DNA from: Candidatus Thorarchaeota archaeon
GTDB lineage: Archaea > Asgardarchaeota > Thorarchaeia > Thorarchaeales > Thorarchaeaceae
Direction: 5' to 3'
NCBI GenBank assembly: GCA_016933575.1
Contig: JAFGAR010000146.1
Location: 32,001 to 96,000 of the forward strand
DNA length: 64,000 nt
The position numbers and the translations under genes were made by a program. Under the pieces are notes generated by a model. The model saw only the letters and a program-made list of their open reading frames with translations. It ran no database searches and was not told the origin of the DNA. The number at the start of each line of letters is the position of its first letter. Position 1 is the first letter of the stretch. This document shows, piece by piece, positions 44,883 to 60,359 of this stretch.

Positions 44883-46175
44883 ATGCTTGAGAAGATTCTC
44901 ACTGAAAAGTTCAGAAATACACTGAGACTGGTCTTTTCAGATATTAATAATCAACAAGATAGAAGAGACGAAGAAGAGTTTGCCAAAGACGAAGTCCGGA
45001 TTAAGGAGAAATTACTAGATACAATCGACCCATATCGCTCTGATATCATATTGGATGAAGACTTCTTAGTTGCAGCCATAGACGGATCTGGAACTGACAG
45101 TCTTGTAGTTCTTGATGATATCCGTGTTCATTTATTGAGTACATCCACTGTTGTTTTGAGTACAAATACTGCTAGTGAGCAGTTTTTCTCTCCAATCGAT
45201 AGAACCAGGCTTGAAGAAGAGCTCGGAGAACAGCCCCATATCGATGCACATTGGCACTCTGGTGTCCGAGGTGATGCCAGAAACAAGATGGCTGAGTCTT
45301 TGAGTTCTATCTACCCTCTGAAAGACCCTATTGATCTTGTTCTTCCTTTCTTTCGCGATTATACAGGGAATAAAATCCGATCTTTTACTGATTTTGCTGA
45401 ATCTGAATATATGCAATATGCAGAGAAGTTACGTGGTATGGAATCGCTCATCACACGAGAACAGGTACTGACAAACGTGTTAGTTCATGATGAGTTGAGA
45501 AAATGCAGTGAATATGCGGCAACACGACGACTTTTGAACAGTGATATCCAAACAAAATACATTCTGCTGGACGGAGCAATGTCTGTATTCATGCACTTTG
45601 TAAGACACTATCCATCAATGCCTACTGGTTTCATGCTCAGAGACCTCTGTGCATTAGCACGTCAAAAAGGCGTGATTCTCTGCGCGGTCAGTAAGAATCA
45701 TACAATTCCATTTGCACATCGAATTGCTAAGATGGCAAAGGATGTGCTGGGCGATGGAGCCAAGTGGTTCTGCCATCTTCCATGCAAAGATGACCCTGGC
45801 GGTGGGCTCCATATCATTGAGGAAAGAACGTATATTCCACCAATGCTTGCGGTTCCCTATCTCTTTAGTTTTTCACGTGACAACAGACCATCTAGAATTG
45901 ATTTTGACAGAATCTGGTGGTTGAAGAACATCTTTGTTGATGGTGACCCACAAGCAACTCGCGAGAACGAAAAGGCTCTCTTCAGAGAGATCGAATTCAT
46001 GTCCAGAGACGCTCGCTGGTACGGTTATCCAGTCCCATTAGCCTTGGCGCATGAAAGCTGCAAATTGAGTTATGAAGACCTTCGACTAGCAAAAGAGATT
46101 GTGCGAGATGTACGTCAGGAATTGGGATTAGATGATAGGAAGACAGACTCTTACCGAGCTGATTACAATTTATGA
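44883..46175 (+). CDS. nurA: NurA-domain nuclease
   Basis: VAAIDGS, ILLDGA, AVSK, GYPVPLALAHES. Confidence 0.85.
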   Translation: MLEKILTEKFRNTLRLVFSDINNQQDRRDEEEFAKDEVRIKEKLLDTIDPYRSDIILDEDFLVAAIDGSGTDSLVVLDDIRVHLLSTSTVVLSTNTASEQFFSPIDRTRLEEELGEQPHIDAHWHSGVRGDARNKMAESLSSIYPLKDPIDLVLPFFRDYTGNKIRSFTDFAESEYMQYAEKLRGMESLITREQVLTNVLVHDELRKCSEYAATRRLLNSDIQTKYILLDGAMSVFMHFVRHYPSMPTGFMLRDLCALARQKGVILCAVSKNHTIPFAHRIAKMAKDVLGDGAKWFCHLPCKDDPGGGLHIIEERTYIPPMLAVPYLFSFSRDNRPSRIDFDRIWWLKNIFVDGDPQATRENEKALFREIEFMSRDARWYGYPVPLALAHESCKLSYEDLRLAKEIVRDVRQELGLDDRKTDSYRADYNL

Positions 46176-46193
46176 TGATTTGAGGAGATACAA

Positions 46194-47954
46194 ATGGAAA
46201 TAGATCGAGATAGACTCGGCGAACTCTACGGAAAAGTAGGAGTTGGAAATCAGACCTCCCTAGGAATTATGGGAAGTAATCGTGACATCAGTGTGGGTGA
46301 GATCTTTATGATCTATTCTCACCGTGATAACCATGAACGTATCTTCTTTTTCAGAGTGTTAGGTCTTGAGAATTATCTTCGCCAAGTTGATGATATGGCA
46401 AGAGTCGCTGGTACACTTATGGTGGAAGGCGATGCATATCTATCAGGAATCGAACGGAATATGCTTCTCTCAGTCAACGGACGAATGCTTGGGTATGCTG
46501 AGAAGGAAAAAGGTGTATGGACCTTCAAATCTCCCCGAAGACTCCCCGATCACTTGGCTTCAGTGTATCGACCTGTTCCAGGAACCTCTGATGAATCTGT
46601 TCGTGAGATGTTAGCCTCCCAAACTGATGGCGATGTATATATCGGAGACCTTCAGGTCGGCGAGAAAACGCTTGATGTTCCTGTCATGATTCCCGCCAAG
46701 TTCTTGCCAATGCATGTTGGTATCTTCGGCTCAACAGGTGCTGGTAAGAGTAATCTCATGATGGTCCTCATCAAATCGTTGATTGATACGAATCTTGACA
46801 CGATTCGAAACCTCAACGAAGACCGGACTAGAGTGTCAGCATTTTGTATAGATCCTCATGACGAATTTGCAAAGGGTGTTGACAAGTATGGAATTCAGAG
46901 CATTGTCGAAGACATGAGCCCTTCAACTCGTACAGAAGTCATTGGTGATTATTATTATCTAACAACCCATAAACGTGCCACAACACGTGAGATTCGCAAG
47001 TATGCTCAGGAGATTCGTATACTCTGGTCTGAAATACAACCTCGTGATCTCTATTCGATTCGAGAATTCACTCCTGAGATGGCTTCATTTATTGACTCGC
47101 AATATGCTTCTGCTCAAGAGGACTGGATCAGCTCTATTCTAAGCATGGATGATGATGTCCCAGAAGTGCAAAAGGGAACAGTTCGAGCAGTGAAACGTAG
47201 GCTCGGATTCTTGCAGAGGTCTCCAATCTTCATTGAAAATGGCACCTCAATACTCGATGAGATATACATAGCAATGGAAACCGGTAGGATCCTTGTCGTC
47301 AATACAAGTCTAATGAGTGATACGGAGCAGTTCTTACTGACAACTATCGTTACCCGAACACTCTCTGATATGAGACGAGCCTTGAAGAGCAGTGGAAATC
47401 TGGCTGACTTTGAGAATCAGGGACAGATGCGTCTTCCCAGGGGTTTCTTCTCTCGAGTGCGAAAACAGGCTCGTGCATTCTATGGTAAAGGTGGAGTTGA
47501 TGATACATCAGAGGTCATCGATCCTCGAAAACTTCCGGTTATTCAGGTCACCGTGGAGGAAGCTCCATCGATTCTCAATCCAGAGCTCATGCGAGGACAA
47601 TCTGTCTTCAAGGACATATCTAGGCAAGGGCGGAAGTTCAATATTGGATTGCTTGTTGTCAGTCAACAAGTCAGTGTGCTTGATAATGTCATACTAAGTC
47701 AAATGAACACCGAGATTAATCTCAGGTTAGGAAATGAACGTGAAATACGGTCATGCATTGAGAATGCAAGCGTGAATATCTCTGGTTTTGAGAATGAATT
47801 CAGGGTCATGTCTCGTGGGGAAGGTATATTGACAGCTTCTTACCGAGAATTACCACTCCCAGTGCGAATTCCACTCTTTGATGACATATATGAGAAGGAT
47901 AAGCATAGGTACAAAGATACAAAGTCAAAGAAGACTGAAGAACATATACTATGA
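46194..47954 (+). CDS. herA: HerA/FtsK-family ATPase
   Basis: HVGIFGSTGAGKS, IDPHDE, VEEA, RQGRKF, VVSQ. Confidence 0.9.
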   Translation: MEIDRDRLGELYGKVGVGNQTSLGIMGSNRDISVGEIFMIYSHRDNHERIFFFRVLGLENYLRQVDDMARVAGTLMVEGDAYLSGIERNMLLSVNGRMLGYAEKEKGVWTFKSPRRLPDHLASVYRPVPGTSDESVREMLASQTDGDVYIGDLQVGEKTLDVPVMIPAKFLPMHVGIFGSTGAGKSNLMMVLIKSLIDTNLDTIRNLNEDRTRVSAFCIDPHDEFAKGVDKYGIQSIVEDMSPSTRTEVIGDYYYLTTHKRATTREIRKYAQEIRILWSEIQPRDLYSIREFTPEMASFIDSQYASAQEDWISSILSMDDDVPEVQKGTVRAVKRRLGFLQRSPIFIENGTSILDEIYIAMETGRILVVNTSLMSDTEQFLLTTIVTRTLSDMRRALKSSGNLADFENQGQMRLPRGFFSRVRKQARAFYGKGGVDDTSEVIDPRKLPVIQVTVEEAPSILNPELMRGQSVFKDISRQGRKFNIGLLVVSQQVSVLDNVILSQMNTEINLRLGNEREIRSCIENASVNISGFENEFRVMSRGEGILTASYRELPLPVRIPLFDDIYEKDKHRYKDTKSKKTEEHIL

Positions 47955-47965
47955 GGTCATCACCT

Positions 47966-49276
47966 ATGACTGTTCGAATTGCCCACATCTCTGATACGCA
48001 TCTCGGGTCTCGCCCAAGAGATGGTGTGAGGCATAACATCTGGGGGCAGGAGATGAAAGCTCAGCTCTTAGAGAATGATTTCTATGAGCGATTCACGGAG
48101 GTATTCGAGCGTATTGCAGCTCTTGACCCACCTGTCGATCTTGTCGTTCACTCAGGTGACCTCTATAATTCTCCTTGGGAGGGCAATCCATCGCAACCAC
48201 CTGTAGTCGCTCAGATAACTGCAATTGAAGTCCTTCAGCAGTTCATTCAGAATACAGGAATTCCAGTTGTGGTCATTGAAGGAAATCATGGTCTCTTTCG
48301 ATTGTACGAGGTCTCACTGCTCGATAGCCTGAGACTTTCAGTACCCGGTTTGAAAGTTGCAACACAACAAGACTTGAAAGAAGCAATCCGTGAAGGCAAA
48401 CCATTGGAATTCTCGTTTGAGAAAGTGGATGTTTTCTGTTTTCCATTCATAGACCCAGCAGTTCTCCGGTCATCAGAACTTATGAGTACCTTTGATGACT
48501 GGATCACAACACATCAAGGTCGTGATAGACTACGACCTGCTATTGCTATTGCTCATGGTATGGACCTTGATCATACACTATACAAATCCATCTTTTCAAT
48601 GAATTATGATTATATTGCTCTCGGACATGACCATCGACAGATCCGGCATTCGCCCAAAGCCTGGTACGCAGGTTCCCCTGAGCGCTGGAGATTTGATGAA
48701 GCTCGCCATGAAAAGGGGTTCCTTGTAGTCGATATCAAGACTGGTGAAGATCCTATTGTCTCTCCTCAGAAGTTTGAATTCATTCGTCCAGTTCTAAATG
48801 ATAAGATAGCAATCAGTGAGGATGATACTGCTGATTCCATTGTTGAGAAGATGGAGTCTTGGTTCGCTGAGAAAGGTCTTTCAGTGGCATGGGACCCGAA
48901 GACTGCAGCTCGAATAAGACTGGTTTTAGAAGGTCACTCAAAACGAGCAAGTTCTTTTGATGTTGGTGTTGCTCTTGAAACTCTTCGTCTGAGAGTTCTC
49001 TCTCAGGACTCGCCTTACAACATTGCACAATTAATTTGGATTCTTCGAGAGACCGGGGATGCTGAATTTACATCTGCATCATATCCTGAGATCGAGTCTG
49101 AGTATCTCATTGAAGACCCGGAGGAGGATTTCAAGAACTACCTTGCAACCCTCGAGATTGATAAGAGCTTTGACACTGAAATCCTCACAAAGATTGCAGT
49201 AGCTTCCCTTGAGTATGCTGTAGGAAAACGAAGTGGAAAGATGACTGCTCAGTCACTCACGGAGGCAGAAGAATGA
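47966..49276 (+). CDS. mre11: Mre11/SbcD metallophosphoesterase nuclease
   Basis: SDTHLG, HSGDLY, GNHG, AHG, LGHDH, YAGSPE. Confidence 0.88.
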   Translation: MTVRIAHISDTHLGSRPRDGVRHNIWGQEMKAQLLENDFYERFTEVFERIAALDPPVDLVVHSGDLYNSPWEGNPSQPPVVAQITAIEVLQQFIQNTGIPVVVIEGNHGLFRLYEVSLLDSLRLSVPGLKVATQQDLKEAIREGKPLEFSFEKVDVFCFPFIDPAVLRSSELMSTFDDWITTHQGRDRLRPAIAIAHGMDLDHTLYKSIFSMNYDYIALGHDHRQIRHSPKAWYAGSPERWRFDEARHEKGFLVVDIKTGEDPIVSPQKFEFIRPVLNDKIAISEDDTADSIVEKMESWFAEKGLSVAWDPKTAARIRLVLEGHSKRASSFDVGVALETLRLRVLSQDSPYNIAQLIWILRETGDAEFTSASYPEIESEYLIEDPEEDFKNYLATLEIDKSFDTEILTKIAVASLEYAVGKRSGKMTAQSLTEAEE

Positions 49277-51348
49277 AACTACTGAATCTGGAGGTTCGCA
49301 ACTTCAAGCCTTTCCGAGAATTGATTCTACCGGAGGATGAAGACGAGCTTCCTGGTGGTCTCATTCTTGTTCGAGGTCCCAACTCAACTGGAAAGTCATC
49401 ACTCTTTGAAGCAATTCTTTGGGGGCTTTGGGGTGCAGATGCAGTAGGCTTGACGAATGACGAACTCATAAGTTTCAGTTCCACCTATTGTAAAGTCATT
49501 GTCACCTTCGATGTAGCAGGTGATAGATACAAGATTGACCGCTCATACAACCCTGCTGATGGTATGTCTGTAGTATTGTTCCTAAAGAAGGGGAACGCCT
49601 GGAAACGGATTGCAGACAAGAGTAAATCTGTTTCAACCAAACTCGATGAGATATTCAGCCTCGAACTTCGTCAAGCACTGAATACCATATTAGTCAGACA
49701 AGGTGAAGTTGCAGCAATAGCTAACTCCACACCATCCGTCCTCAGAAATCTGTTGATCGATGTCTATGATATAGAGATCTTGAATCGCATGTCGAAACAT
49801 CTGGAGGACCTTGAATCAAATCTTGATTCTGAGATTGATTCTCGTGCTCGTAGCTATCGGTCACCCGAGGACATTCAAGAGGAGATTCAACGCTGTCATT
49901 CTCGTATAAACAGATACAATGAATCGATCAAACAGCGGAAAGATGAGATAACTTCCACAGAGAAACTGCTTGCAGACATCCCTGATATTCCGTCACTTCG
50001 AAAGGTGAGTGAAATCAATTCCAAAATGGAGCGCCAACAACAGGAGCTGACCCTTGTGATGAAAGAGCTCCAACGTTATCTTAGTCAGGCTGGGCTCTTG
50101 GAGGCTGATGACACACTTATTCATGCTCGTCTGGAATCGCTGGATCGGGAACGGGAGCGTGTAGAGTCTGAACGTAGCCTGATTGAAACGACAATTCAGA
50201 AGATTGACCAAGAGATAGGAATAAGCAAGGGGCGACGTACTGACTTCTCTGACAAAATCAACACATTGACTGGAAGGGAAAAGACTGAAGCAGTCTGTCC
50301 TACTTGTTCGAAACCACTCTCCGCTTCCGAACGTGATAGTCTTGTTTCTGAGTACAAGAAGGCGATAACGGATGGTGATATCCAGATCAGGGAGCTGGAA
50401 AAACAACGTGATCACCATTCAGAATCAATAAAGAAGATAGACGGACGTCTAACAGTAATATCAAAGTCATCTGACGCAGCTGATAATGTAAAAGACACTC
50501 ACACGAATGTTAGAGAGATCCAACAGAAGATATCAACATCCGAACATGAACTTCAACAGATACTTGATTCCATGGGTGTGAAGGACTTTGATGTTTTTCT
50601 GAAGAAATTCAATGTGGATAGTATTGCTAGCCTTCAGAGTAAAGTTGAGAGTCTGACTAGCATGCTCAAAGAGGCTAAGAAAGGGACATCTGAAATCGAA
50701 GAAAACATCCTTCAAGAACAAGAACAGATAGCTGATTTGGAGAGCAAGGAAGTACTCATGAAACAGCTAGGTGCTGAGATTGAGGAGATGAAGCAACTCA
50801 ATGAACACGCAAAATATGTGCGTAGGAAACTCGTTAGTGGGTTTGTTGCAGACTATGTATTTCAGAAGAGACTCCTTGGGATCATTAGGAGTGCCACCAA
50901 TCAATATGTGCGCTTCTTCACTAATGGACAGTATACAAGTGTGGACCTTGAACCCACGGCACCGACAAAACGGTCTGGTCCCGGCCTTCTCTTAAAGATC
51001 TGGGATGAACGCGATCAAGCCTGGAAGAAGACCTCACAGTTAAGCTATGGTGATAGGACCGCAATCAGTCTTGCACTACGACTCGGTATTAGCCGAACCA
51101 TGAGTAGTATCAGACCGCTCCGAGATAGTCCAATAATGATACCACGAATGAGGAGTGTCCTACTTGATGAACCTCTTGGAGGGCTTGACAAGAGCCGTCG
51201 TGAGTCTGTCGTGACCAATCTCGTCAATGATAAGAACTTCGAGCAAATACTACTCATCACACATACTGATGTTCAAGGTTGGGAAGATGTTCCAATCATT
51301 GAGGTCTCTAAATCAGGTGCTGGTAGCAGAGCGGTCCTTATAATGTAA
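49273..51348 (+). CDS. rad50: Rad50/SbcC SMC-like ATPase
   Basis: GPNSTGKSS, VRQGE Q-loop, CPTC zinc hook, LSYGD, LLDEP, ITH. Confidence 0.9.
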   Translation: MKLLNLEVRNFKPFRELILPEDEDELPGGLILVRGPNSTGKSSLFEAILWGLWGADAVGLTNDELISFSSTYCKVIVTFDVAGDRYKIDRSYNPADGMSVVLFLKKGNAWKRIADKSKSVSTKLDEIFSLELRQALNTILVRQGEVAAIANSTPSVLRNLLIDVYDIEILNRMSKHLEDLESNLDSEIDSRARSYRSPEDIQEEIQRCHSRINRYNESIKQRKDEITSTEKLLADIPDIPSLRKVSEINSKMERQQQELTLVMKELQRYLSQAGLLEADDTLIHARLESLDRERERVESERSLIETTIQKIDQEIGISKGRRTDFSDKINTLTGREKTEAVCPTCSKPLSASERDSLVSEYKKAITDGDIQIRELEKQRDHHSESIKKIDGRLTVISKSSDAADNVKDTHTNVREIQQKISTSEHELQQILDSMGVKDFDVFLKKFNVDSIASLQSKVESLTSMLKEAKKGTSEIEENILQEQEQIADLESKEVLMKQLGAEIEEMKQLNEHAKYVRRKLVSGFVADYVFQKRLLGIIRSATNQYVRFFTNGQYTSVDLEPTAPTKRSGPGLLLKIWDERDQAWKKTSQLSYGDRTAISLALRLGISRTMSSIRPLRDSPIMIPRMRSVLLDEPLGGLDKSRRESVVTNLVNDKNFEQILLITHTDVQGWEDVPIIEVSKSGAGSRAVLIM

Positions 51349-51386
51349 GATACCCTCTCGTGGCAATAGCGTAAGGCTAAATATTA

Positions 51387-53753
51387 ATGAGTGGGGTTTC
51401 CTCTCGAAGACCCATGGACGTTCTTGAGGGAAGGATGCATCGCATAAGAACAAGTAGAAACCTACTTGATAGATGGTTCCTTCGGAACGGCCATCGACTT
51501 GCTGAGACTCTGAATGAGTACCGCTATCTTATTGCAGTATTGCTTATTGGATTTGTAGTCTGGGCTGTTGTCTTCAATATAGCTCTAGTCGATTATCTCA
51601 ATTCAACACGATGGACATCGCGGACAGCGTGGCTTGGTCCTCTTCCTGACCCTGCATATTTTGATTTTCTTGGTTTCACAATAGAGTACCAATTCGAAGG
51701 ATATAGTGATTATTCATTCTACTATGTTCACTGGGGGTATAATCTACTTAATGGCGTAATGCCATACTCCGGGGAATTTGGTTATCTAGAAATGGATGGG
51801 TTGATTAATGAAAATGGAGCCTACATGTTTCCTCCGCTCACAGCGTATCTCTATGCATTCGGCATAGCTCTTGGAAACATCATCGGTCCCGGAAATTGGG
51901 GCATAGGTCTCTTATTCGCCATCTTCGGGTATCTAACGACTTTACCTGTCTATGGGATTGCAAAGGAGTTCTCTGGAAATCCAAGAGTTGGAGAGATTGC
52001 TGCACTGACATATGTCATAAATCCCCTAGTGCTCTACCATATCGATTACATTTGGCTTAATCCTGCGCCATTCTATTTCTTCTTCTTTGCTGGGTTTTAT
52101 GCACTTCTCAAGAAGAGAAGAAATACTGCAATCATTCTGATTGTGACTGCGGCATTATTCAAGCAGACTGCTTGGTTCTTGGGAATTCCTCTTGTGGTTC
52201 ATCTTATCATGCGTGCTCGTGAGAGAAAAGAGAGACCCTCCACAGAATACGAATCTGTTGTGCCTCTCGATGGCAATGATGCCAAGATGTCTTCACGAAC
52301 GCTTAGTCTATCCTTCATAAAATCTCGCTTTAGACGGGTACTGAAAGATAGGGTGCCTAAGGCTAAAAAGGATGAACCAAAATTGAGTACAATTGCGTTC
52401 ATCAAGGAGTTCTTTGACCTTCGAGTGTTTCTTGAGAGTGTTATTGTTGCTGTCCTCTATGTGGGAGCAATTATGCTACCGTATATCCTTGCTCAACCAC
52501 ATTTCTTGAGTTATTGGCAACTTGCCACGGGATACTTCAACTTTGAGAACTTTGTAGATCCAATTGCTTACAATGTTCCAGAACGGCTACCAATATTATT
52601 GATTCTTAACAACATGCCGGAATTAGCTGAATTATTGGATTTGCTCTTACTCTCCTCTGGTCCATTTTTCTTTGGAATTATTGTCTTTACAGGACTGATG
52701 ATTCTCCTCGATAAATACAAAGGCGAGGAAACCCGTTATCTTCGCAGACTCCTCTTCTTCACATTTCTCCTCATGCTCTGGACGAATCTGACTGGTCCTC
52801 GTGGTGTCTTCAAGTATTATTTCACGATGTTTGCTCCATTCTTCTCGATTTTCTCTTCGTATTCTATGACACGTTATGACAGCGATCATGTACCAGTTTC
52901 AGCCTCGATGATTTGGATGCCTATTTCCTTCACTCTTCTAATTCTACTTCCAGATCGTGATTTCTATCTAGCCTATGTCATCGGTATCTTTCTATGGTAC
53001 ATACTTGCCCCACTATTCGCAAGACTCTATGGCATCATTAAGAAACCATTCGGATATCTCAAAACCAGAGTTGGAACGCGAATAGATCTTGCAATGGCAA
53101 CTATCACTGTGCAGGGTTTCTCTCACCCCTCGAAGATCCATCGATCTCTTGGGATTGCTATAGTCGTAGTTTCTGGAATTGCTGGCTCCTCTCTAGTTAT
53201 ACTGGGTGTCTTAGCAACATTCACAGTACTAGAATTATCAATCCAAATCATTATGCAGTATCTTCTCCTGACCGGTGCAATTATTTTCATCGGTATGCAA
53301 TTTCTCTCAATCGCACTAACCTATCTGCAACCTTCAATTGACAAAATTACTGATCTGAACTATACTCTCAAAACACTGTCCTACACGCTAGCTGGACTTA
53401 TCCTCATCTTTGGGGGGAGTACGTACATTCTAAGTTGGAACATTGATAGCTTCCTATCACGACAACTGATGGTCATATCAGGGGTTATCTGCATGATCTG
53501 GACATTTGCCTTAGTATTGAAGACTGAAAATCGGACTAGGCTGTTAATCGACATCTTCCTCCTTATTGGAACTGGCACAGCCACTTGGGTGTGGTTCAAT
53601 CTTGTAGATACTCTCTACTTCCCTCTTGGCATAGCCTGTATGGTTGGCATAGTCATCCATCTGATGACAGTCCTGCTTAAGGAATTCAGGCATGACGAAG
53701 AGTCTGTTCAGGATAAAAATGGAGAACTAACAATCGAAGCTGCACTTTACTGA
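51387..53753 (+). CDS. GT-C membrane glycosyltransferase (GT87/PIG-M-like) with extra TM helices
   Basis: FEGYSDY, GVMPY, YMFPPL, FKQTA, PRGVFKYY; start uncertain. Confidence 0.65.
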   Translation: MSGVSSRRPMDVLEGRMHRIRTSRNLLDRWFLRNGHRLAETLNEYRYLIAVLLIGFVVWAVVFNIALVDYLNSTRWTSRTAWLGPLPDPAYFDFLGFTIEYQFEGYSDYSFYYVHWGYNLLNGVMPYSGEFGYLEMDGLINENGAYMFPPLTAYLYAFGIALGNIIGPGNWGIGLLFAIFGYLTTLPVYGIAKEFSGNPRVGEIAALTYVINPLVLYHIDYIWLNPAPFYFFFFAGFYALLKKRRNTAIILIVTAALFKQTAWFLGIPLVVHLIMRARERKERPSTEYESVVPLDGNDAKMSSRTLSLSFIKSRFRRVLKDRVPKAKKDEPKLSTIAFIKEFFDLRVFLESVIVAVLYVGAIMLPYILAQPHFLSYWQLATGYFNFENFVDPIAYNVPERLPILLILNNMPELAELLDLLLLSSGPFFFGIIVFTGLMILLDKYKGEETRYLRRLLFFTFLLMLWTNLTGPRGVFKYYFTMFAPFFSIFSSYSMTRYDSDHVPVSASMIWMPISFTLLILLPDRDFYLAYVIGIFLWYILAPLFARLYGIIKKPFGYLKTRVGTRIDLAMATITVQGFSHPSKIHRSLGIAIVVVSGIAGSSLVILGVLATFTVLELSIQIIMQYLLLTGAIIFIGMQFLSIALTYLQPSIDKITDLNYTLKTLSYTLAGLILIFGGSTYILSWNIDSFLSRQLMVISGVICMIWTFALVLKTENRTRLLIDIFLLIGTGTATWVWFNLVDTLYFPLGIACMVGIVIHLMTVLLKEFRHDEESVQDKNGELTIEAALY

Positions 53754-53764
53754 GGGTCAAAACT

Positions 53765-55282
53765 ATGATTTCACATAAGAAATCGCAGGTATCTAGAATC
53801 TCAGCGGCATTACATACGAATCTCATATTGATTATCATTCTTTGTACAGCTGTTATTCTATGGGCATGGATATTCACACTGGCTTCTTCTGAGTTTCTTG
53901 AGGGTTCAACTCGGCCTCTCAGGGCTGTCTGGAGTGGTACTGGCCATTTCGAGCTCTTTGGTATGACTATCTATTATGACTTTGAAGGGTATGCTGATTA
54001 TGATTATTACTACTACTCGTGGGGTGAGCAGTTCGTAAATGGTATACCACCTTATACTGACCTCTTCAATACGATAGAATTCAATACAGCCCAATACCAG
54101 ACTCCATACTTCTTTCCCCCTCTCTTCGTCTACATGTGTGCCCTGGGGATGCTTCTCCCAATCAATCCATTTGGAATTGCTTTTCTACTAGCCATGTTTG
54201 GATTTCTCACTGCTTTCCCTATTTATGGAATTAGTAGGTACTTGTCTCAAAATCCTCATGTTGCAGAGATCTCCGTTGCTACCTATCTCTTCAATCCAAT
54301 CATCCTCTATCATACTGTTTACTCATGGTTGAATCCCTCACCATTTGTGTTCTTCATGATTCTCTCTTTCTATCTCCTAATGAGAGGAAATCGATTGACA
54401 GGTGTATTAGCAATGACCACTGCAGCACTATTGAAACAGACTGCATTCTTCATGGCTCTCCCCCTGGTTGCCTTCTTACTGGTCAAACGAGTTCCTTCTG
54501 ATCATAGCTCAACGCCTGATGAAGAACCACGTCGGAAACTTGAGTTCGACCTAAGAGGATTTGCAAGATATTCTGTTTATACTGCTGTCTATGTACTAGC
54601 TATCTCCTTTCCCTATGTTCTAAATCTAGGTAATTATCTATACTATATCTTCCAACGTCCCGGTGCCTTTCTGATAGAGGACATTACCACATTGCCAGAT
54701 GTTTCCCAACCCATCACTATTACAGTACTTCTGATATTACTTGGTGCTCCTGCTGTTCTTACTGAGCTTGTTAATCAAGCAACATATCTTGGAGTCTTTC
54801 TTACGATATCGATGTGCGCCATCTTTCTTCTCATGTTTTTACTGAAGCGAGAACATGACGATGTGCGCATATATTGGCGCAAGATGTTCCTTCTCTCTCT
54901 TCTCTTGATGTTTTGTGTGCATCTATTCTCTCCGCGAGGGATCTACAAATACTACTGTGTTGCTCTCATACCCTTTATCTCAGTCCTCTCTGTGTCGCGT
55001 ATGTTCTCAGCAGCAGAAGAACCAGTAAGGCCAACTCTCTTCATGGTTCTTAATCCCATGGTCTTTAGTGTGTTAATCCTCTTTCCAACACGCTATGTCT
55101 ACCTATTCTTTCTCATTCTCTTATTTGTAGGATATGTTCTGCATAAACAGTTTAGCCTCTTCATAGAGATGGCTAATCAATCCCTGAAACGAGTTTTCTC
55201 CTACCTACGACTAAGATCAAAGGGAATACCTGGAACTGAATTTCATGAAGATACTGAAGAGATTCCTAATCCTCACTCTTAA
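53765..55282 (+). CDS. GT-C membrane glycosyltransferase (paralog)
   Basis: FEGYADY, GIPPY, YFFPPL, LKQTA, PRGIYKYY. Confidence 0.65.
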   Translation: MISHKKSQVSRISAALHTNLILIIILCTAVILWAWIFTLASSEFLEGSTRPLRAVWSGTGHFELFGMTIYYDFEGYADYDYYYYSWGEQFVNGIPPYTDLFNTIEFNTAQYQTPYFFPPLFVYMCALGMLLPINPFGIAFLLAMFGFLTAFPIYGISRYLSQNPHVAEISVATYLFNPIILYHTVYSWLNPSPFVFFMILSFYLLMRGNRLTGVLAMTTAALLKQTAFFMALPLVAFLLVKRVPSDHSSTPDEEPRRKLEFDLRGFARYSVYTAVYVLAISFPYVLNLGNYLYYIFQRPGAFLIEDITTLPDVSQPITITVLLILLGAPAVLTELVNQATYLGVFLTISMCAIFLLMFLLKREHDDVRIYWRKMFLLSLLLMFCVHLFSPRGIYKYYCVALIPFISVLSVSRMFSAAEEPVRPTLFMVLNPMVFSVLILFPTRYVYLFFLILLFVGYVLHKQFSLFIEMANQSLKRVFSYLRLRSKGIPGTEFHEDTEEIPNPHS

Positions 55283-56453
55283 GAAACTCTAATTCCTTTT
55301 CCTTTTTCTCTATCTTTTTCTGAATACTCTTTATCCTTGCATCAAGCTTCTCGATCTGCTCAGTATAGGTCTCTTTTGGCATTGTTCCAGAGGAATGCCT
55401 CTGTTCAACGTGGTCTTTGAGTTGTTCAACAGATTTGATCTCTTTCTTCAGTGACTTGACATCCGCCTCAATATCTGCGGTCTTGTTCTCATCTGCAGTC
55501 TTGAACTGCTTCGCAGGAATCATGACACCAAGCTGTTCCTGTGTTTTTTCAGCAAAGTCTTGAAACTGATCACGTAGAAGTTCAATATTGCCTTCTACAT
55601 TCTCCACCTTCGTGCTTATTTTTGAGATATCTTTCTGAAGGTCAAAGACTGCATTAACAAGCCTTCTAAGTGTCTGTTCAAACTCTGCTGATAGAGCTGC
55701 TTCCGCATGAGTCTGTGCGGCTTTCTCAGCTGCTTCTTCTTTGGCTTGTTCCTTCACTACGGAGCTTGGTTTGGTCAATTGAAACTCACCACTCAGCCAT
55801 TGAAATGCATTCTGGGCGAAAGTCTTGTTGCCTTTGTGTTTTAGTCCGCCCCCTCTTCTGAAAATCTCATAACTACCTACACACATCACACGACCTTTCC
55901 CAGACTCTGCAATGGCAACAATCGGAGCTTTTGCTGGTTCTGCCATCTCAGATGTTCGTGCAAGTGTCTGTGCTTTTCCAGTGACGACAAGGCTACATGA
56001 TGAAGGAATGAGAAGGTCGTTTACATCCTCTGTGATGGGATGCGCTACTAGATCCGAAATAATAGGCATCGTTGGTAGACCTGCATTATTTCTCTCATCC
56101 TTTACAGCTGTATTATCGAATGTGATTCCAAATTCCTCTGACAGCTGGGATAGGTTATTCATAAGACCTCGATCTCCTCCTGAGAGTGATAATAGGAGGA
56201 GACTACCTCCATTATTCACGTATTTCTTAAGGACATCTATCTCTGGAGGTCGAATCTTTGAACTATTAGGACAGGCTAACACAAGTACATCTGTATCCTT
56301 GAGGTTCTTGGCAAGGATCATGAATTCGGTATATGGTTCAACATCATAGTCATTATCACGCAAGATCTTTCCAAGCTCTGAATATGTGCTATCCAGCCTT
56401 CCTCGTTCATTTTGTGTTTGATCGAAGTGTATTTTCTTTCTTCGTCCGCTCAA
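55266..56453 (-). CDS. GIFT (GldG/IFT52-like) domain + coiled-coil protein
   Basis: IHFDQTQNE, DVLVLACP, LKKYVNNGGSLL, FGITF, HPIT, GKGRV, AFQWL; heptad-rich C-terminus. Confidence 0.75.
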   Translation of the reverse strand: MSGRRKKIHFDQTQNERGRLDSTYSELGKILRDNDYDVEPYTEFMILAKNLKDTDVLVLACPNSSKIRPPEIDVLKKYVNNGGSLLLLSLSGGDRGLMNNLSQLSEEFGITFDNTAVKDERNNAGLPTMPIISDLVAHPITEDVNDLLIPSSCSLVVTGKAQTLARTSEMAEPAKAPIVAIAESGKGRVMCVGSYEIFRRGGGLKHKGNKTFAQNAFQWLSGEFQLTKPSSVVKEQAKEEAAEKAAQTHAEAALSAEFEQTLRRLVNAVFDLQKDISKISTKVENVEGNIELLRDQFQDFAEKTQEQLGVMIPAKQFKTADENKTADIEADVKSLKKEIKSVEQLKDHVEQRHSSGTMPKETYTEQIEKLDARIKSIQKKIEKKEKELEFLKSED

Positions 56454-56573
56454 AGGAATGCACCTACAGTAACCAGGTATTATCTCATCATGAAAGATGC
56501 GCTAATGAGACTTGTGTAGATATCACTCCCTACCTTCGAATGCTTTATCATGCACAAATACCAGTATTTCTCC

Positions 56574-57002
56574 ATGAATGATGAGAATTGTATCTTCTGT
56601 AAAATAGTAAAAGGTGAGATACCTTCCTCAGTCATCTTCAAAGATGATATCTGCATGGCCTTTATGGATGTCTATCCAATTACACCTGGGCACTGTCTGT
56701 TGATACCCAAACGCCATTTTGTGAATCTATTCGATGTTGACCCCGAAGTATTGGCTCACATGGCAAAACGGCTTATTGATCTCACAAGAGGTGTGTCTGA
56801 GGCAACGGGAGCTGATGGAGTCCTTACAGTCAATGCAAACGGCGAAGGTGCTGGTCAAGAAGTTCCTCATCTGCATTTCCATGCAATTCCTCGAAATAAG
56901 GGTGATCCCTTTGGTTTCAAGTTTCCCCCGGGTTATCGAGAGTCCATGGCTACACGTGATGAATTGGATAAGATAGCTAAGAGGATCCATGAATCGATCT
57001 AA
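56574..57002 (+). CDS. hit: HIT-family nucleotide hydrolase
   Basis: CIFCKI, GHCLLIPK, GQEVPHLHFH. Confidence 0.93.
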   Translation: MNDENCIFCKIVKGEIPSSVIFKDDICMAFMDVYPITPGHCLLIPKRHFVNLFDVDPEVLAHMAKRLIDLTRGVSEATGADGVLTVNANGEGAGQEVPHLHFHAIPRNKGDPFGFKFPPGYRESMATRDELDKIAKRIHESI

Positions 57003-57430
57003 ACATTCAACAGATTCAGTCCAGTCAGCTCATCGCGTTCTCGCTCTATTACCGGGAATTCAGTGATAATTGCCTCGATTGTGACCGAAACCTCACATCC
57101 TTCTAAAAGGTGTCCACCATAACATTTTCCTTTCTCATCTGATGCTACGACATGTGCATGAACTACATACCCATCCTTGTGTTTCGAAATGTTGCCCATG
57201 CATGAAACGATCTCAAGATCCTCTAGCATAGTATAGTCCTTGTAGGTCTTTGATTCTCTATCGAAGTAACCAAGATGAACCCGTGATACTGCTCCTATCA
57301 ATCTCAATTCGCCTGATAGTATTTCATTATCTCGGGATATTGTTTCGATGGAGCGAAGTATGTCTTCTCCGGGCTCGAGACGAGCGATTACGACTCTCCC
57401 AGTTGTTTTAGTTACAAGAGTACGAACCAT
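56999..57430 (-). CDS. PPC/DUF296 domain protein
   Basis: RLEPGED, IGAV, EIVSCMGN, HAH, GGHL. Confidence 0.9.
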   Translation of the reverse strand: MVRTLVTKTTGRVVIARLEPGEDILRSIETISRDNEILSGELRLIGAVSRVHLGYFDRESKTYKDYTMLEDLEIVSCMGNISKHKDGYVVHAHVVASDEKGKCYGGHLLEGCEVSVTIEAIITEFPVIERERDELTGLNLLNV

Positions 57431-57524
57431 AACAATGAAGACATCACGGTAACTAATGAATGACTCGGAGCTATTTGTGTAATGGGAAGTGCTTATCTAT
57501 GGTATTCAATCATTAAAAGTGTGG

Positions 57525-60359
57525 ATGGCCTTGGTGAAGGACGAAAACCCCCTTGATGAAAATCAGTCTTCATTGGAGGATTATCTCAGATTTGAAGAAG
57601 AAGGTCCCTCTTCCTCAGAATCTACTACACAAGTAGATGAAGAGATATCTAAACCGATACCGGAGGTAGAAGACACTCCGAATCCTACTTCTTCTAATGC
57701 ATTAGTTGAAGAGGGCTCTGAAAATGAGGATGAAGAGATTCTTGATGATAATGAGGAAGAGGTCATAAGTGACATTTCTATTGGAGCCCAAGATACTCCT
57801 CAAAATCTCCCACCATCTTTTCTGCTCTCCATAGACTATTCCGGGCCTCTGAACAAGGCAATTGCTCGTCTCTATGAACCAAAATCAAAGAGAATCTATT
57901 TCTGGGAGGATAATACTGGCCACAAACCCTACCTGTATACCGATTGGCCTGCTCAAATGGTCGAATCCAAGACGCGGAGAAATCCCGGATTTATTAAGAC
58001 CGAAACTGTGGATCTTCACGATCTTCTGCATGACAAACCTGTAACGATGACCAAGCTCATTGGAGATAATCCCCTCGCTATTGGTGGTGGGAATGACTCC
58101 ATGAGAAATGTCCTCAAAGACAATAGTGGAGTTAGTCATGCATGGGAAGCAAATATTCGGTACCATCTCTGTTACACTTATGATACAGAATTAGTCCCAG
58201 GACTGATGTATAAGATCGAGAATGGTGACCTCATTCCTTGTCCTCCCGATGTTGATAGAAAGACCCTCGAAGAATTCAAGGATACTATCGCCAAAGAGAA
58301 GGGACTCGAATCAATCATATCCACCTACTCACCTATGTTCTTCACAACAGTACCTGACATTAAAAGACTCGCAGTGGATATTGAAGTCTATACGCCTGTG
58401 GTAAACAGAATTCCAGATACCCGTGCTGCTCAACAACCTGTCACTGCAATAGGTCTCTCAGACAATGAGGGCTACAACAAGTGCTTCGTATTACGTCGGA
58501 AAGGTATGGACTCCGGTGAGAAGGGAAAGGACTTCCCGAAGGAACTTGAAATCGTCTATTATGATGATGAATCTGAGATGTTAGTCGAGGCTTTCAAGAT
58601 TATTGACAGTTATCCAATTGTTCTGACATTTGTTGGCGATTCATTTGACCTCAAATATCTGTACAACCGTGCTAAGGCACTACGGATAGACTTGGACCGT
58701 TATTGCCCAATTGTAATCCGTGGCAATCAAGACCCAAGAAGAGAACAAGCCAATCTGAAACGCGGAATCCATGTTGACATGTACAAATTCTTTGGCAATC
58801 CCTCCATCAAGATCTACGCATTATCTGGTGCATATCAACGCGAGAATCTCGATACAATTGCAGCGGGTATTCTTGGTGTTGGAAAACTTGCCCTCAGCGA
58901 CAATATCTCCAATCTGTCTTACTATGAACTTGCCCATTATTGCTGGTTAGATGCTAATCTTGTTCTCCGTTTTACCGAATATGAACACAATCTTCTCCTA
59001 CGTCTTATGGTGCTTCTCATGCGTATCTCGCGTATGTCGTTGGGTGAAGTAACACGATTCTACATTTCCTCTTGGATTCAGTCGCTCTTTCGTCAGGAGC
59101 ATAGGTCAAAGAAGTATCTTCTCCCCCGTCGTGTTGATATTGACACAATGAAACAGCCAGATGCCCAGACTGAGGCAATGATTGGCGGCAAGGCATTCAA
59201 AGGAGCAATCGTCATTGAACCAGTTGCTGGAGTACACTTTGATGCAACAGTTCTGGACTTTGCCAGTCTATATCCAACTATTATGAAAGCCCACAACATC
59301 AGCTATGAAACAATCGACTGCCCCCATGAGGAATGCAGAACAGCTGGCGATAACAGAGTTCCTGAGACCGATCATTGGATATGTAAGAAGAATCGCGGAA
59401 TGATTAGTCAAACGATTGGATTCTTCAGAGATACTCGAGTTAATTGGTTCAAACCGAAGAGTAAAGACAAGAAACTGGATGAGGCTACTCGTAACTGGTA
59501 TTCTGTAGTAGAGAAGGCTCTCAAGGTGTTCGTCAATGCATCCTATGGGGTAACCGGAGCGCAGCACTTTGAGCTTTTCTGTATGCCTGCAGCAGAGAGT
59601 GTGACTGCCTTCGGCCGTGATGCAATTATTCGTACAAAAGCAAAGTCCGAAGCCATGGGAATTAGAGTTCTCTATGGCGATACAGACTCAGTCTTCCTAG
59701 ATAATCCAACCCCTGAACAACAGAAGGAACTTGTAAAATGGTCCCGAGAGGTATTAGGAATTGACCTTGAAGTTGAGAAGACATACAAGTATGTAGCGCT
59801 CTCTGACCGGAAAAAGAACTACATTGGAGTGTACAAAGACGGTCGCGTTGAGGTCAAGGGTCTCAGTGGCAAGAAACGCAACACACCAGATTTTGCACAA
59901 GAAGCATTTCGAAAGATGCTGGAAGTACTTAGTCGTGTTGATGATGCAGAAGGTTTTGAAGCTGCTAAGGATGAAATCCGTGAGATTGTCAATTGTGTGA
60001 TTGATAGGCTCGAAGGAAAAACGGAGGAGTACTCTCCCTCAGAACTTGCATACCGAATTCAGCTAACTAAACGACTATCTGACTATCCCACTGATACTCC
60101 TCATGTACGTGCTGCTAAGATGTTAGTTGAGAAGACAAATGACCCAAACAAAGTTCAACCTGGAACAATTATTGAATTCATTCGTGTAAAAGGTCAAGGC
60201 GGAGTCATTCCAGTAGAGATCGCAAAAGATGTGTCCTACTATATCGATAAGGACACCTACATTGATATTCTCAAGAGTGTTTTCGAACAAGTTCTTGATT
60301 CTGTAGGTCTCGATTTTAATGAATTTCTTGGTTTTACCACACTGGATAAGTTCTTCTAG
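57525..60359 (+). CDS. polB1: Family B DNA polymerase, PolB1 type
   Basis: DNTGHKPY, AVDIEV, DFASLYP, SYETIDCPHEEC, KVFVNASYG, YGDTDS; C-terminal PIP-like TLDKFF. Confidence 0.93.
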   Translation: MALVKDENPLDENQSSLEDYLRFEEEGPSSSESTTQVDEEISKPIPEVEDTPNPTSSNALVEEGSENEDEEILDDNEEEVISDISIGAQDTPQNLPPSFLLSIDYSGPLNKAIARLYEPKSKRIYFWEDNTGHKPYLYTDWPAQMVESKTRRNPGFIKTETVDLHDLLHDKPVTMTKLIGDNPLAIGGGNDSMRNVLKDNSGVSHAWEANIRYHLCYTYDTELVPGLMYKIENGDLIPCPPDVDRKTLEEFKDTIAKEKGLESIISTYSPMFFTTVPDIKRLAVDIEVYTPVVNRIPDTRAAQQPVTAIGLSDNEGYNKCFVLRRKGMDSGEKGKDFPKELEIVYYDDESEMLVEAFKIIDSYPIVLTFVGDSFDLKYLYNRAKALRIDLDRYCPIVIRGNQDPRREQANLKRGIHVDMYKFFGNPSIKIYALSGAYQRENLDTIAAGILGVGKLALSDNISNLSYYELAHYCWLDANLVLRFTEYEHNLLLRLMVLLMRISRMSLGEVTRFYISSWIQSLFRQEHRSKKYLLPRRVDIDTMKQPDAQTEAMIGGKAFKGAIVIEPVAGVHFDATVLDFASLYPTIMKAHNISYETIDCPHEECRTAGDNRVPETDHWICKKNRGMISQTIGFFRDTRVNWFKPKSKDKKLDEATRNWYSVVEKALKVFVNASYGVTGAQHFELFCMPAAESVTAFGRDAIIRTKAKSEAMGIRVLYGDTDSVFLDNPTPEQQKELVKWSREVLGIDLEVEKTYKYVALSDRKKNYIGVYKDGRVEVKGLSGKKRNTPDFAQEAFRKMLEVLSRVDDAEGFEAAKDEIREIVNCVIDRLEGKTEEYSPSELAYRIQLTKRLSDYPTDTPHVRAAKMLVEKTNDPNKVQPGTIIEFIRVKGQGGVIPVEIAKDVSYYIDKDTYIDILKSVFEQVLDSVGLDFNEFLGFTTLDKFF

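Follow-up and report, generated by a model that had tools for sequence, protein, structure and literature searches.

We analyzed a 64,000-nt window of a Candidatus Thorarchaeota archaeon genome (assembly GCA_016933575.1, contig JAFGAR010000146.1, positions 32,001 to 96,000 of the forward strand; positions below are those of the window), which carries on its minus strand a gene for a protein with an N-terminal GIFT domain, as found in the intraflagellar transport (IFT) subunit IFT52, and a long helical tail. The gene comprises 395 codons followed by a stop codon at 55266-55268, and starts with a TTG at 56453 (Table 1). A preliminary description, made from the letters of the window, had proposed a 395-aa open reading frame (ORF) at this place, with an alpha/beta domain of about 220 aa ahead of a heptad-rich tail, and had taken the domain for a candidate archaeal relative of IFT52-N. 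The ORF is confirmed by its translation and by a start that homologues support, and the division into head and tail by a structural model of residues 1-226 and by the heptad statistics of the tail, both given below. The source genome comprises 3.47 Mb in 215 contigs and is 85.5% complete.

Table 1. Positions of the GIFT gene and its parts in the window, and of the GIFT paralogues on other contigs of the same genome.
Feature	Coordinates	Strand	Basis
Whole gene, cytosolic GIFT-domain protein with helical tail	55266..56453	minus	ORF list and translation, homologues
Shine-Dalgarno-like AGGTG	56461..56465	minus	7-nt spacer to TTG start; read from the sequence
GIFT domain, residues 1-226, class-I-glutamine-amidotransferase-like alpha/beta fold	55776..56453	minus	Pfam, hhalign, AlphaFold2 (AF2), Foldseek
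Variable E/K/A-rich linker, residues 227-258	55680..55775	minus	Gapped and poorly conserved in close homologues; predicted local distance difference test (pLDDT) <50
Heptad stalk, residues 259-308, conserved TLRRLVNAVFDLQKDISK ... LRDQFQDFAEKTQ stretch	55530..55679	minus	Heptad score, conservation, predicted helix
C-terminal helical hairpin, residues 320-393, SHOCT-like turn motif RHSSGTMPKETYTEQ	55275..55496	minus	Helices 320-354 and 360-393, pLDDT 78-92
GIFT paralogue L002	166-2697 (contig C155)	minus	N-terminal signal or transmembrane segment and C-terminal transmembrane anchor
GIFT paralogue L003	238-2748 (contig C156)	minus	N-terminal signal or transmembrane segment and C-terminal transmembrane anchor
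GIFT paralogue L004, 376 aa	778-1908 (contig C21)	minus	N-terminal signal or transmembrane segment and C-terminal transmembrane anchor
GIFT paralogue L005	505-2796 (contig C38)	plus	N-terminal signal or transmembrane segment and C-terminal transmembrane anchor

An in-frame stop codon lies 17 codons upstream of the TTG, with no ATG, GTG or TTG in between, and in an alignment of close homologues the N-terminal MSGRR stands at an identical position. With the intervening stop and no upstream start, a longer form carrying a signal peptide, which the preliminary description had named as something that would speak against its reading, is impossible. The gene call stored for the source genome (P0002, 351 aa) starts at M45, thus omitting 56322-56453, and is 44 codons too short, since the MSGRR start is conserved upstream of it and the truncation deletes the first strands and a helix that are modelled at pLDDT 98. 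Along its whole length the protein has no hydrophobic segment, no 19-residue Kyte-Doolittle window reaching 1.6. Together with the missing upstream start, this bears out the earlier claim that signal peptide and transmembrane segment are both lacking, and the protein is predicted to be cytosolic.

Pfam IFT52_GIFT matches at five places in the source genome, namely the protein studied here (hereafter the target) and four paralogues of 376-843 aa, all of which have an N-terminal signal or transmembrane segment and a C-terminal anchor, such that the target is the genome's only cytosolic GIFT protein. A hidden Markov model (HMM) built from 44 eukaryotic IFT52 sequences gave the target 80 bits, versus 27-33 bits for the four exported paralogues. 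The smallest of these, L004, has a type-I topology like that of eukaryotic OST48/Wbp1, and Pfam OST48_N does not match it. The preliminary description had held that prokaryotic GIFT domains are usually extracytoplasmic: the four paralogues agree with this premise, whereas 93 of 121 full-domain GIFT representatives have no hydrophobic segment at the N or C terminus, by a rough Kyte-Doolittle criterion applied to a set in which the cytosolic Asgard family is over-represented.

The GIFT head and its relation to IFT52

The head is a member of the GIFT superfamily (PF23355, PF09822 and DUF4350, PF14258). Its best Pfam match on the target is IFT52_GIFT (PF23355; 64.8 bits, E 8e-18, cut-off 27.2), followed by ABC_transp_aux (PF09822; 40.1 bits, cut-off 34.7); the name of the former is no evidence of a tie to cilia, because the exported paralogues and many bacterial proteins share the same label. 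When PDB sequences were searched with phmmer, the significant matches were IFT52 chains only (Chlamydomonas 5fmr_A, E 3.5e-12; 8bd7_B, E 1.6e-11; mouse 5fms_A, E 2.9e-8). When a profile of 67 family heads was compared with one of IFT52 by hhalign, the two aligned over 222 columns (probability 99.8%, E 5.5e-29), from residues 2-228 of the family to 19-268 of IFT52, with one insertion of about 25 residues in IFT52, which follows its NDAVV strand. We refolded the head with the 67-sequence alignment using AF2, and obtained a model of residues 1-226 with pLDDT 95.6 and a predicted template-modelling (TM) score, pTM, of 0.92. Foldseek against the PDB placed mouse and Chlamydomonas IFT52-N (5fms/5fmr) on top (E 1.4e-20 to 3.6e-19, TM 0.84-0.88, root mean square deviation 1.9-4.3 A, 26% identity), ahead of OST48/Wbp1 at E ~1e-10, and then of STM3548, GH42 middle domains and ThuA-like proteins.

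IFT52 (OSM-6/BLD1, a subunit of IFT-B1; 5fmr, 5fms, 8bd7_B) is, like the target, cytosolic with an N-terminal GIFT domain. Motifs common to both are ILFD, E-x-x-x-LK, GG, GG[DE], TN-x-N, N-D-x-V, G-x-G-[RK], GS-x-x-x-F and N-x-x-x-x-x-x-x-x-x-W-L. The N-terminal domain of the target is a genuine whole-length homologue of IFT52-N, as the preliminary description had stated: the PDB alignments contain the segments that it quoted, and IFT52-N is the best match among solved structures in the Foldseek comparison that it had proposed. OST48/Wbp1 is the other eukaryotic GIFT protein. Its luminal domain (7oci_G, 6ezn_G, 6s7t_G), the second-best group of solved structures, shares the fold of the target (E 1e-10, TMq 0.68-0.73); unlike the target, OST48/Wbp1 is a luminal type-I membrane protein, with 14-18% identity, and Pfam OST48_N has no match in the source genome.

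The target belongs to a family that extends well beyond Thorarchaeota. Homologues at E <= 0.001 number 316, of which the closest, named Thorarchaeota, are 70-78% identical, tail included. When 1.84 billion cluster representatives were searched with a profile, 1537 proteins passed E <= 0.001, 68 of them also E <= 1e-30; in the top ~65 the GIFT domain is N-terminal or nearly so, the length is 330-570 aa, and nearly all have no hydrophobic segment at either end. The few that carry a name are Loki-, Hel-, Ran- or Promethearchaeota or "Asgard group", and a single one is called Korarchaeota. A survey of Asgard genomes, which the preliminary description had suggested, gave a GIFT match in 348 of 400, with full-domain matches of 190-215 bits in many families, while some families gave weak matches only, or none.

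Does the head stand nearer to IFT52 than the remaining prokaryotic GIFT domains do? The prokaryotic sequences used for the profile scores, signature residues, tree and topology tests that follow were picked by similarity to the target, not to IFT52. Against the IFT52 profile, hhalign scored the Asgard family at 230, all the other prokaryotic groups in the sample at 241 and the exported ones only at 218, while the Asgard family scored 268-484 against the other prokaryotic GIFT groups. As IFT52 scores 218-241 throughout, it is about equally far from all groups, and the Asgard cytosolic family sits among the prokaryotic ones. By these scores the prokaryotic GIFT, DUF4350 and ABC_transp_aux (GldG-like) domains are the closest to the target. 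Eukaryotic IFT52 does not appear among the best 150 of the 1537 representatives found with the Thorarchaeota profile (cut at ~78 bits), where many exported multi-domain proteins are present. A feature search of the ESM Atlas gave a similar order, the nearest clusters being small proteins of bacteria or archaea with an IFT52_GIFT or DUF4350 label, while that of eukaryotic IFT52 comes 17th.

The signature residues follow the same division. Nearly all members of the Asgard family have D94, D119, H138, C153 and S154, which are also frequent in the remaining prokaryotic GIFT groups, whether cytosolic or exported; in IFT52 the corresponding residues are E, R, R/K, A and T. The prokaryotic set may form a putative ligand or catalytic site that IFT52 lost. 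Conversely, IFT52 no longer binds IFT-B2 when K130 and R204 are both mutated (PMC4818760), and the residues of the target aligned with this pair are T128 and A176. The lysine is present in 13/13 and the arginine in 12/13 IFT52 sequences, and no prokaryotic GIFT group sampled keeps them. K66 and P173 are found mainly in IFT52 and the Asgard family.

In the GIFT tree that we built (74 rows, 235 columns, LG+C20+F+G4, ultrafast bootstrap and Shimodaira-Hasegawa approximate likelihood-ratio support), IFT52 is monophyletic (100/100) and attached by a stem of 1.55 substitutions per site to a polytomous backbone, which does not separate the target from GldG-like prokaryotic domains; the core of the Asgard family, 16 rows, is weakly supported (82/92). 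Holding IFT52 together with the family core changes the log-likelihood (lnL) by +0.62 relative to the free tree (approximately unbiased, AU, test, p 0.519), and holding it with an exported clade costs 2.24 lnL units (p 0.452). The AU tests reject neither placement, so that the phylogeny the preliminary description had called for yields IFT52 as a long-stemmed clade that can join either group. We also searched 185,579 prokaryotic species genomes from the IFT52 side, which returned only two 1.6-kb contigs of bacterial metagenome-assembled genomes and is uninformative on distant relatives. These contigs (L031 110-874, in a Paceibacterota bin; L032 140-804, in a Desulfobacteraceae bin) hold fragments 46-50% identical to eukaryotic IFT52, and are most likely eukaryotic contamination of the bacterial bins.

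As judged from sequence comparison, the head thus appears to be of the ordinary prokaryotic GIFT type and not specially IFT52-like, and its relation to IFT52 is shown at the level of the superfamily, because both its profile distance and its signature residues are of that ordinary type. Of the earlier proposal of an archaeal relative of IFT52, the homology over the whole domain, the cytosolic location and the strong matches in many Asgard families stand, while a special closeness by profile or signature residues does not. Likewise, the grouping with secreted GldG/DUF4350 domains that would count against the proposal was found in part: the head is prokaryotic by profile and signature residues, and sisterhood with IFT52 is not rejected (p 0.519).

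These data bear on a further-reaching hypothesis, that the Asgard cytosolic GIFT family is the direct archaeal ancestor of IFT52, an orthologous lineage whose head was vertically inherited at eukaryogenesis and whose tail was later replaced by the regions binding IFT88/70 and IFT46. In agreement with it, the target is the sole cytosolic GIFT protein of its genome and by far the best match there to the IFT52 HMM, strong full-domain matches occur across many Asgard families, K66 and P173 are mainly common to IFT52 and the family, and a tree constrained to unite IFT52 with the family core fits as well as the unconstrained one. Among solved structures IFT52-N also beats OST48 by ten orders of magnitude, although no prokaryotic GIFT structure is available in the PDB to compare on equal terms. 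However, joining IFT52 to an exported clade is equally acceptable on the polytomous backbone, profile distances show no special closeness, and several Asgard families have weak matches only or none. Clear shared derived residues are absent, the family keeping prokaryotic signature residues that IFT52 lacks, and the IFT-B2-binding pair K130/R204 is replaced by T128/A176. The regions that would complete an IFT52 are missing as well: IFT52_central (PF23352) and Itf52_C (PF21178), both present in nearly all eukaryotic IFT52 proteins retrieved, have no match in the target at E <= 1 and none in the whole genome. For the partner subunit IFT46, IFT46_B_C (PF12317) has no match in the 85.5%-complete genome, in a search whose control genomes included no eukaryote and whose sensitivity is therefore not demonstrated. 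We regard direct ancestry as a tentative hypothesis, more doubtful than probable.

The helical tail and its terminal hairpin

In place of the central (IFT88/70-binding) and C-terminal (IFT46-binding) domains of IFT52, the target carries a heptad stalk and a hairpin, and hhalign found no similarity between the tail and the C-terminal half of IFT52 (probability 0.2%). Residues 233-395 are 47% D/E/K/Q/R, with 2 Pro and 3 Gly, and in the best register 66% of the a/d positions are hydrophobic, compared with 42.4 +/- 2.8% in 200 shuffles (~8 standard deviations). A full-length AF2 model made with 17 close homologues (mean pLDDT 66.8, poor at 1-50 and 225-310), which we used for helix boundaries only, predicts tail helices at 229-282, 284-308, 320-354 and 360-393. 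Behind a variable linker, the stalk reaches a hydrophobic a/d fraction of 0.96-0.97 in 28-residue windows starting at 253-280 and is strongly conserved within Thorarchaeota; a short conserved break, LGVMIPAKQFKT, separates it from the hairpin, whose turn reads RHSSGTMPKETY. A co-fold of two copies of residues 228-395 scored 0.02, below the mark and without controls, and is used as evidence for neither side.

Searching Pfam with the tail alone returned coiled-coil families below threshold only (DUF7310, 27 bits, cut-off 40). Of 61 family tails, 31 were recovered with an iterated profile of the hairpin, which in every case lies at the extreme C terminus, also in distant orthologues. SHOCT (PF09851) matches 5 of these 31 hairpins at E <= 1 (best 2.3e-4), while the hairpin of the target itself falls below every Pfam cut-off. 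Against PDB sequences, the best match of the profile was 8whn, the OST1 cytoplasmic domain of MK-D1 (E 2.6e-4), and in the source genome it also hit a Na+/H+ exchanger in the tail (E 2.1e-5) and a 182-aa protein at its end. SHOCT and the OST1 (ribophorin I) bundle of 8whn share with the target hairpin the pattern helix-[RK]-x-x-x-G-x-[IMLP]-x-x-x-x-Y-helix. The motif ...Y-x-x-G-K-[IL]-x-x-x-x-Y... occurs twice in the cytoplasmic tail of the Na+/H+ exchanger (L024 25-1698 (+), contig C56) and once at the end of the 182-aa protein, which has no Pfam family (L025 1477-2025 (-), contig C45). The hairpin looks like a mobile SHOCT-like module of Asgard proteins, and since the same hairpin sits on unrelated carriers including the Na+/H+ exchanger, we read it as a generic module and not as one specific to ESCRT-I (an endosomal sorting complex) or to the oligosaccharyltransferase (OST).

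The structure 8whn is a cytoplasmic four-helix bundle of MK-D1 OST1, borne on a membrane protein and binding ribosomes (PMC11417166). Ribosome binding is a property of that bundle, to which the target hairpin is likened by sequence. We considered a link of the target to the OST complex, given a hairpin resembling MK-D1 OST1 and a head resembling OST48, and rejected it: neither Pfam Ribophorin_I nor OST48_N has a match in the genome, and the hairpin also occurs on the Na+/H+ exchanger.

Gene neighborhood and proposed role

The genes at 44883-55282 and 56550-60359 are ordered as a 430-aa ORF, HerA, Mre11, Rad50, two large multi-pass membrane proteins, the GIFT gene, a HIT-family gene, PCC and a family-B DNA polymerase (PolB). 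The GIFT gene is convergent with the two membrane protein genes (51387-55282), which follow HerA, Mre11 and Rad50, and divergent from the HIT-family gene, behind which lie PCC and the polymerase. A second Thorarchaeota genome (L018) has the whole arrangement, and in a more distant relative (L019, 49% identity) the side with the membrane proteins and Rad50/Mre11/HerA is retained. The 3' ends of the GIFT gene and the convergent 505-aa ORF (53765-55282), whose product has no Pfam match, overlap by 17 bases (55266-55282), as they do likewise in both of these genomes.

A Lokiarchaeota orthologue (558 aa) has a tropomyosin-like tail and no hairpin. On its 3' side and the same strand, we noted genes for a 785-aa coiled-coil protein (L021 8785-11142 (+), with matches of the CALCOCO1/CCDC39 type) and for a 317-aa protein without family; this may be a lineage-specific partner. 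The locus of a Ranarchaeia orthologue has nothing in common with the Thorarchaeota arrangement. No ABC (ATP-binding cassette) transporter gene lies near the GIFT gene in the window, in the other Thorarchaeota locus, or in the Loki and Ranarchaeia loci.

Based on these data, we propose that the target is probably a soluble cytoplasmic scaffold or adaptor, with an ordinary prokaryotic GIFT head that is conserved across many Asgard families. In this model, the head would bind a partner or small ligand through a predicted crevice lined by D11, D94, D119, H138 and C153/S154, residues that sit just after predicted beta-strands, while the heptad stalk and the SHOCT-like hairpin would mediate self-association or docking onto another helical protein, and an oligomer so formed would display two or more heads. 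A precedent for such a head exists in IFT52-N, which binds proteins without being an enzyme and, with IFT88, connects IFT-B1 to IFT-B2 (PMC4818760).

Several points weigh against this proposal. The binding partner, ligand and oligomeric state are inferred, and the single crevice is deduced from the positions of predicted strands. About half of the family representatives have no hairpin, such that the role of the tail may vary between lineages. The gene neighborhood gives no pan-Asgard clue, synteny being confined to Thorarchaeota and a sister lineage, and the choice of the comparison set by similarity to the target biases the claim that IFT52 is equidistant from all groups. Finally, the conserved Asp, His and Cys residues could instead signal an enzyme.

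In an enzymatic head, or one that binds small molecules or glycans, D94, D119, H138, C153 and S154 would be the catalytic or ligand-binding residues, and the adjacent membrane proteins would be its partners in Thorarchaeota. Such a function would fit the near-invariance of these residues in the family, their retention in exported GIFT groups, a fold of the class-I-amidotransferase, ThuA or GH42-domain type, and the fact that in Thorarchaeota and the sister lineage the gene is always convergent with that of a 459-521-aa multi-pass membrane protein. We nevertheless consider it unlikely. To our knowledge, no GIFT protein has a demonstrated catalytic activity. In the model, C153 stands at the start of a strand and not at a nucleophile elbow, the adjacency to a membrane protein is absent from the Loki and Ranarchaeia loci, and the neighboring 505-aa protein matches no Pfam family. 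IFT52-N, moreover, has no catalytic residues and does not bind sugars (PMC4818760).

The layout of head, linker, stalk and hairpin is also Vps23-like, raising the idea of an ESCRT-I-like chassis in which the GIFT head replaces the UEV (ubiquitin E2 variant) domain of Vps23 and the hairpin, of the steadiness-box or Vps28-N type, enters the ESCRT-I headpiece. The hairpin profile does match Vps28 core chains (2f6m_B, 2p22_B and 2caz_B), and one family member matches Pfam VPS28, but at E 0.12-0.21 and 0.015, respectively, these matches are below significance; VPS28 and Vps23_core are outside the 25 Pfam families that the largest numbers of the 31 hairpins match, and the significant best matches, to 8whn and to the Na+/H+ exchanger, are unrelated carriers that a generic SHOCT-like module explains better, which makes this idea very improbable. 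That the target is an exported GldG-type ABC-transporter accessory protein with a missed signal peptide, as its ABC_transp_aux match and the database names "DUF4350" or "Gldg family" of some relatives might suggest, is almost certainly wrong and already contradicted by the sequence, with its shared MSGRR start, its upstream stop without an intervening start and its lack of any hydrophobic segment, and by loci devoid of ABC transporter genes; unlike GldG-type proteins and the four exported or membrane-anchored paralogues, the family has no export signal and no adjoining transporter, and has its own coiled-coil tail with a terminal hairpin.

Prokaryotic GIFT domains as such have been known since Beatson and Ponting 2004, as cited in PMC4818760. 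In the literature that we found, a cytosolic Asgard GIFT family with a tail of its own is undescribed: full-text searches gave no paper linking IFT52 with Asgard archaea and none describing this family, none of the papers containing both IFT52 and "archaea" treats an archaeal IFT52 relative, as far as titles and abstracts tell, and the paper on Heimdallarchaeial ancestry does not mention IFT or GIFT.

Thus, in addition to the scaffold or adaptor role that we favor, the family bears on the origin of a ciliary component. The usual view is that IFT arose within eukaryotes from a coatomer-like ancestor, and we know of no IFT-B core subunit with a documented archaeal forerunner. It is conceivable, though doubtful at present, that the Asgard family of GIFT domain plus coiled coil is the source lineage of IFT52, and that in parallel the exported anchored paralogues could be the source of OST48/Wbp1. 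If this were true, IFT52 would be the first subunit of the IFT-B core whose ancestry can be traced to archaea, and part of the ciliary transport scaffold would be older than the cilium, having existed as a soluble Asgard adaptor. A conserved cytosolic Asgard GIFT protein is a concrete candidate that makes the origin of IFT52 a testable question; apart from IFT, it represents an uncharacterized Asgard protein that is strongly conserved, at 70-78% identity across Thorarchaeota with the tail included.

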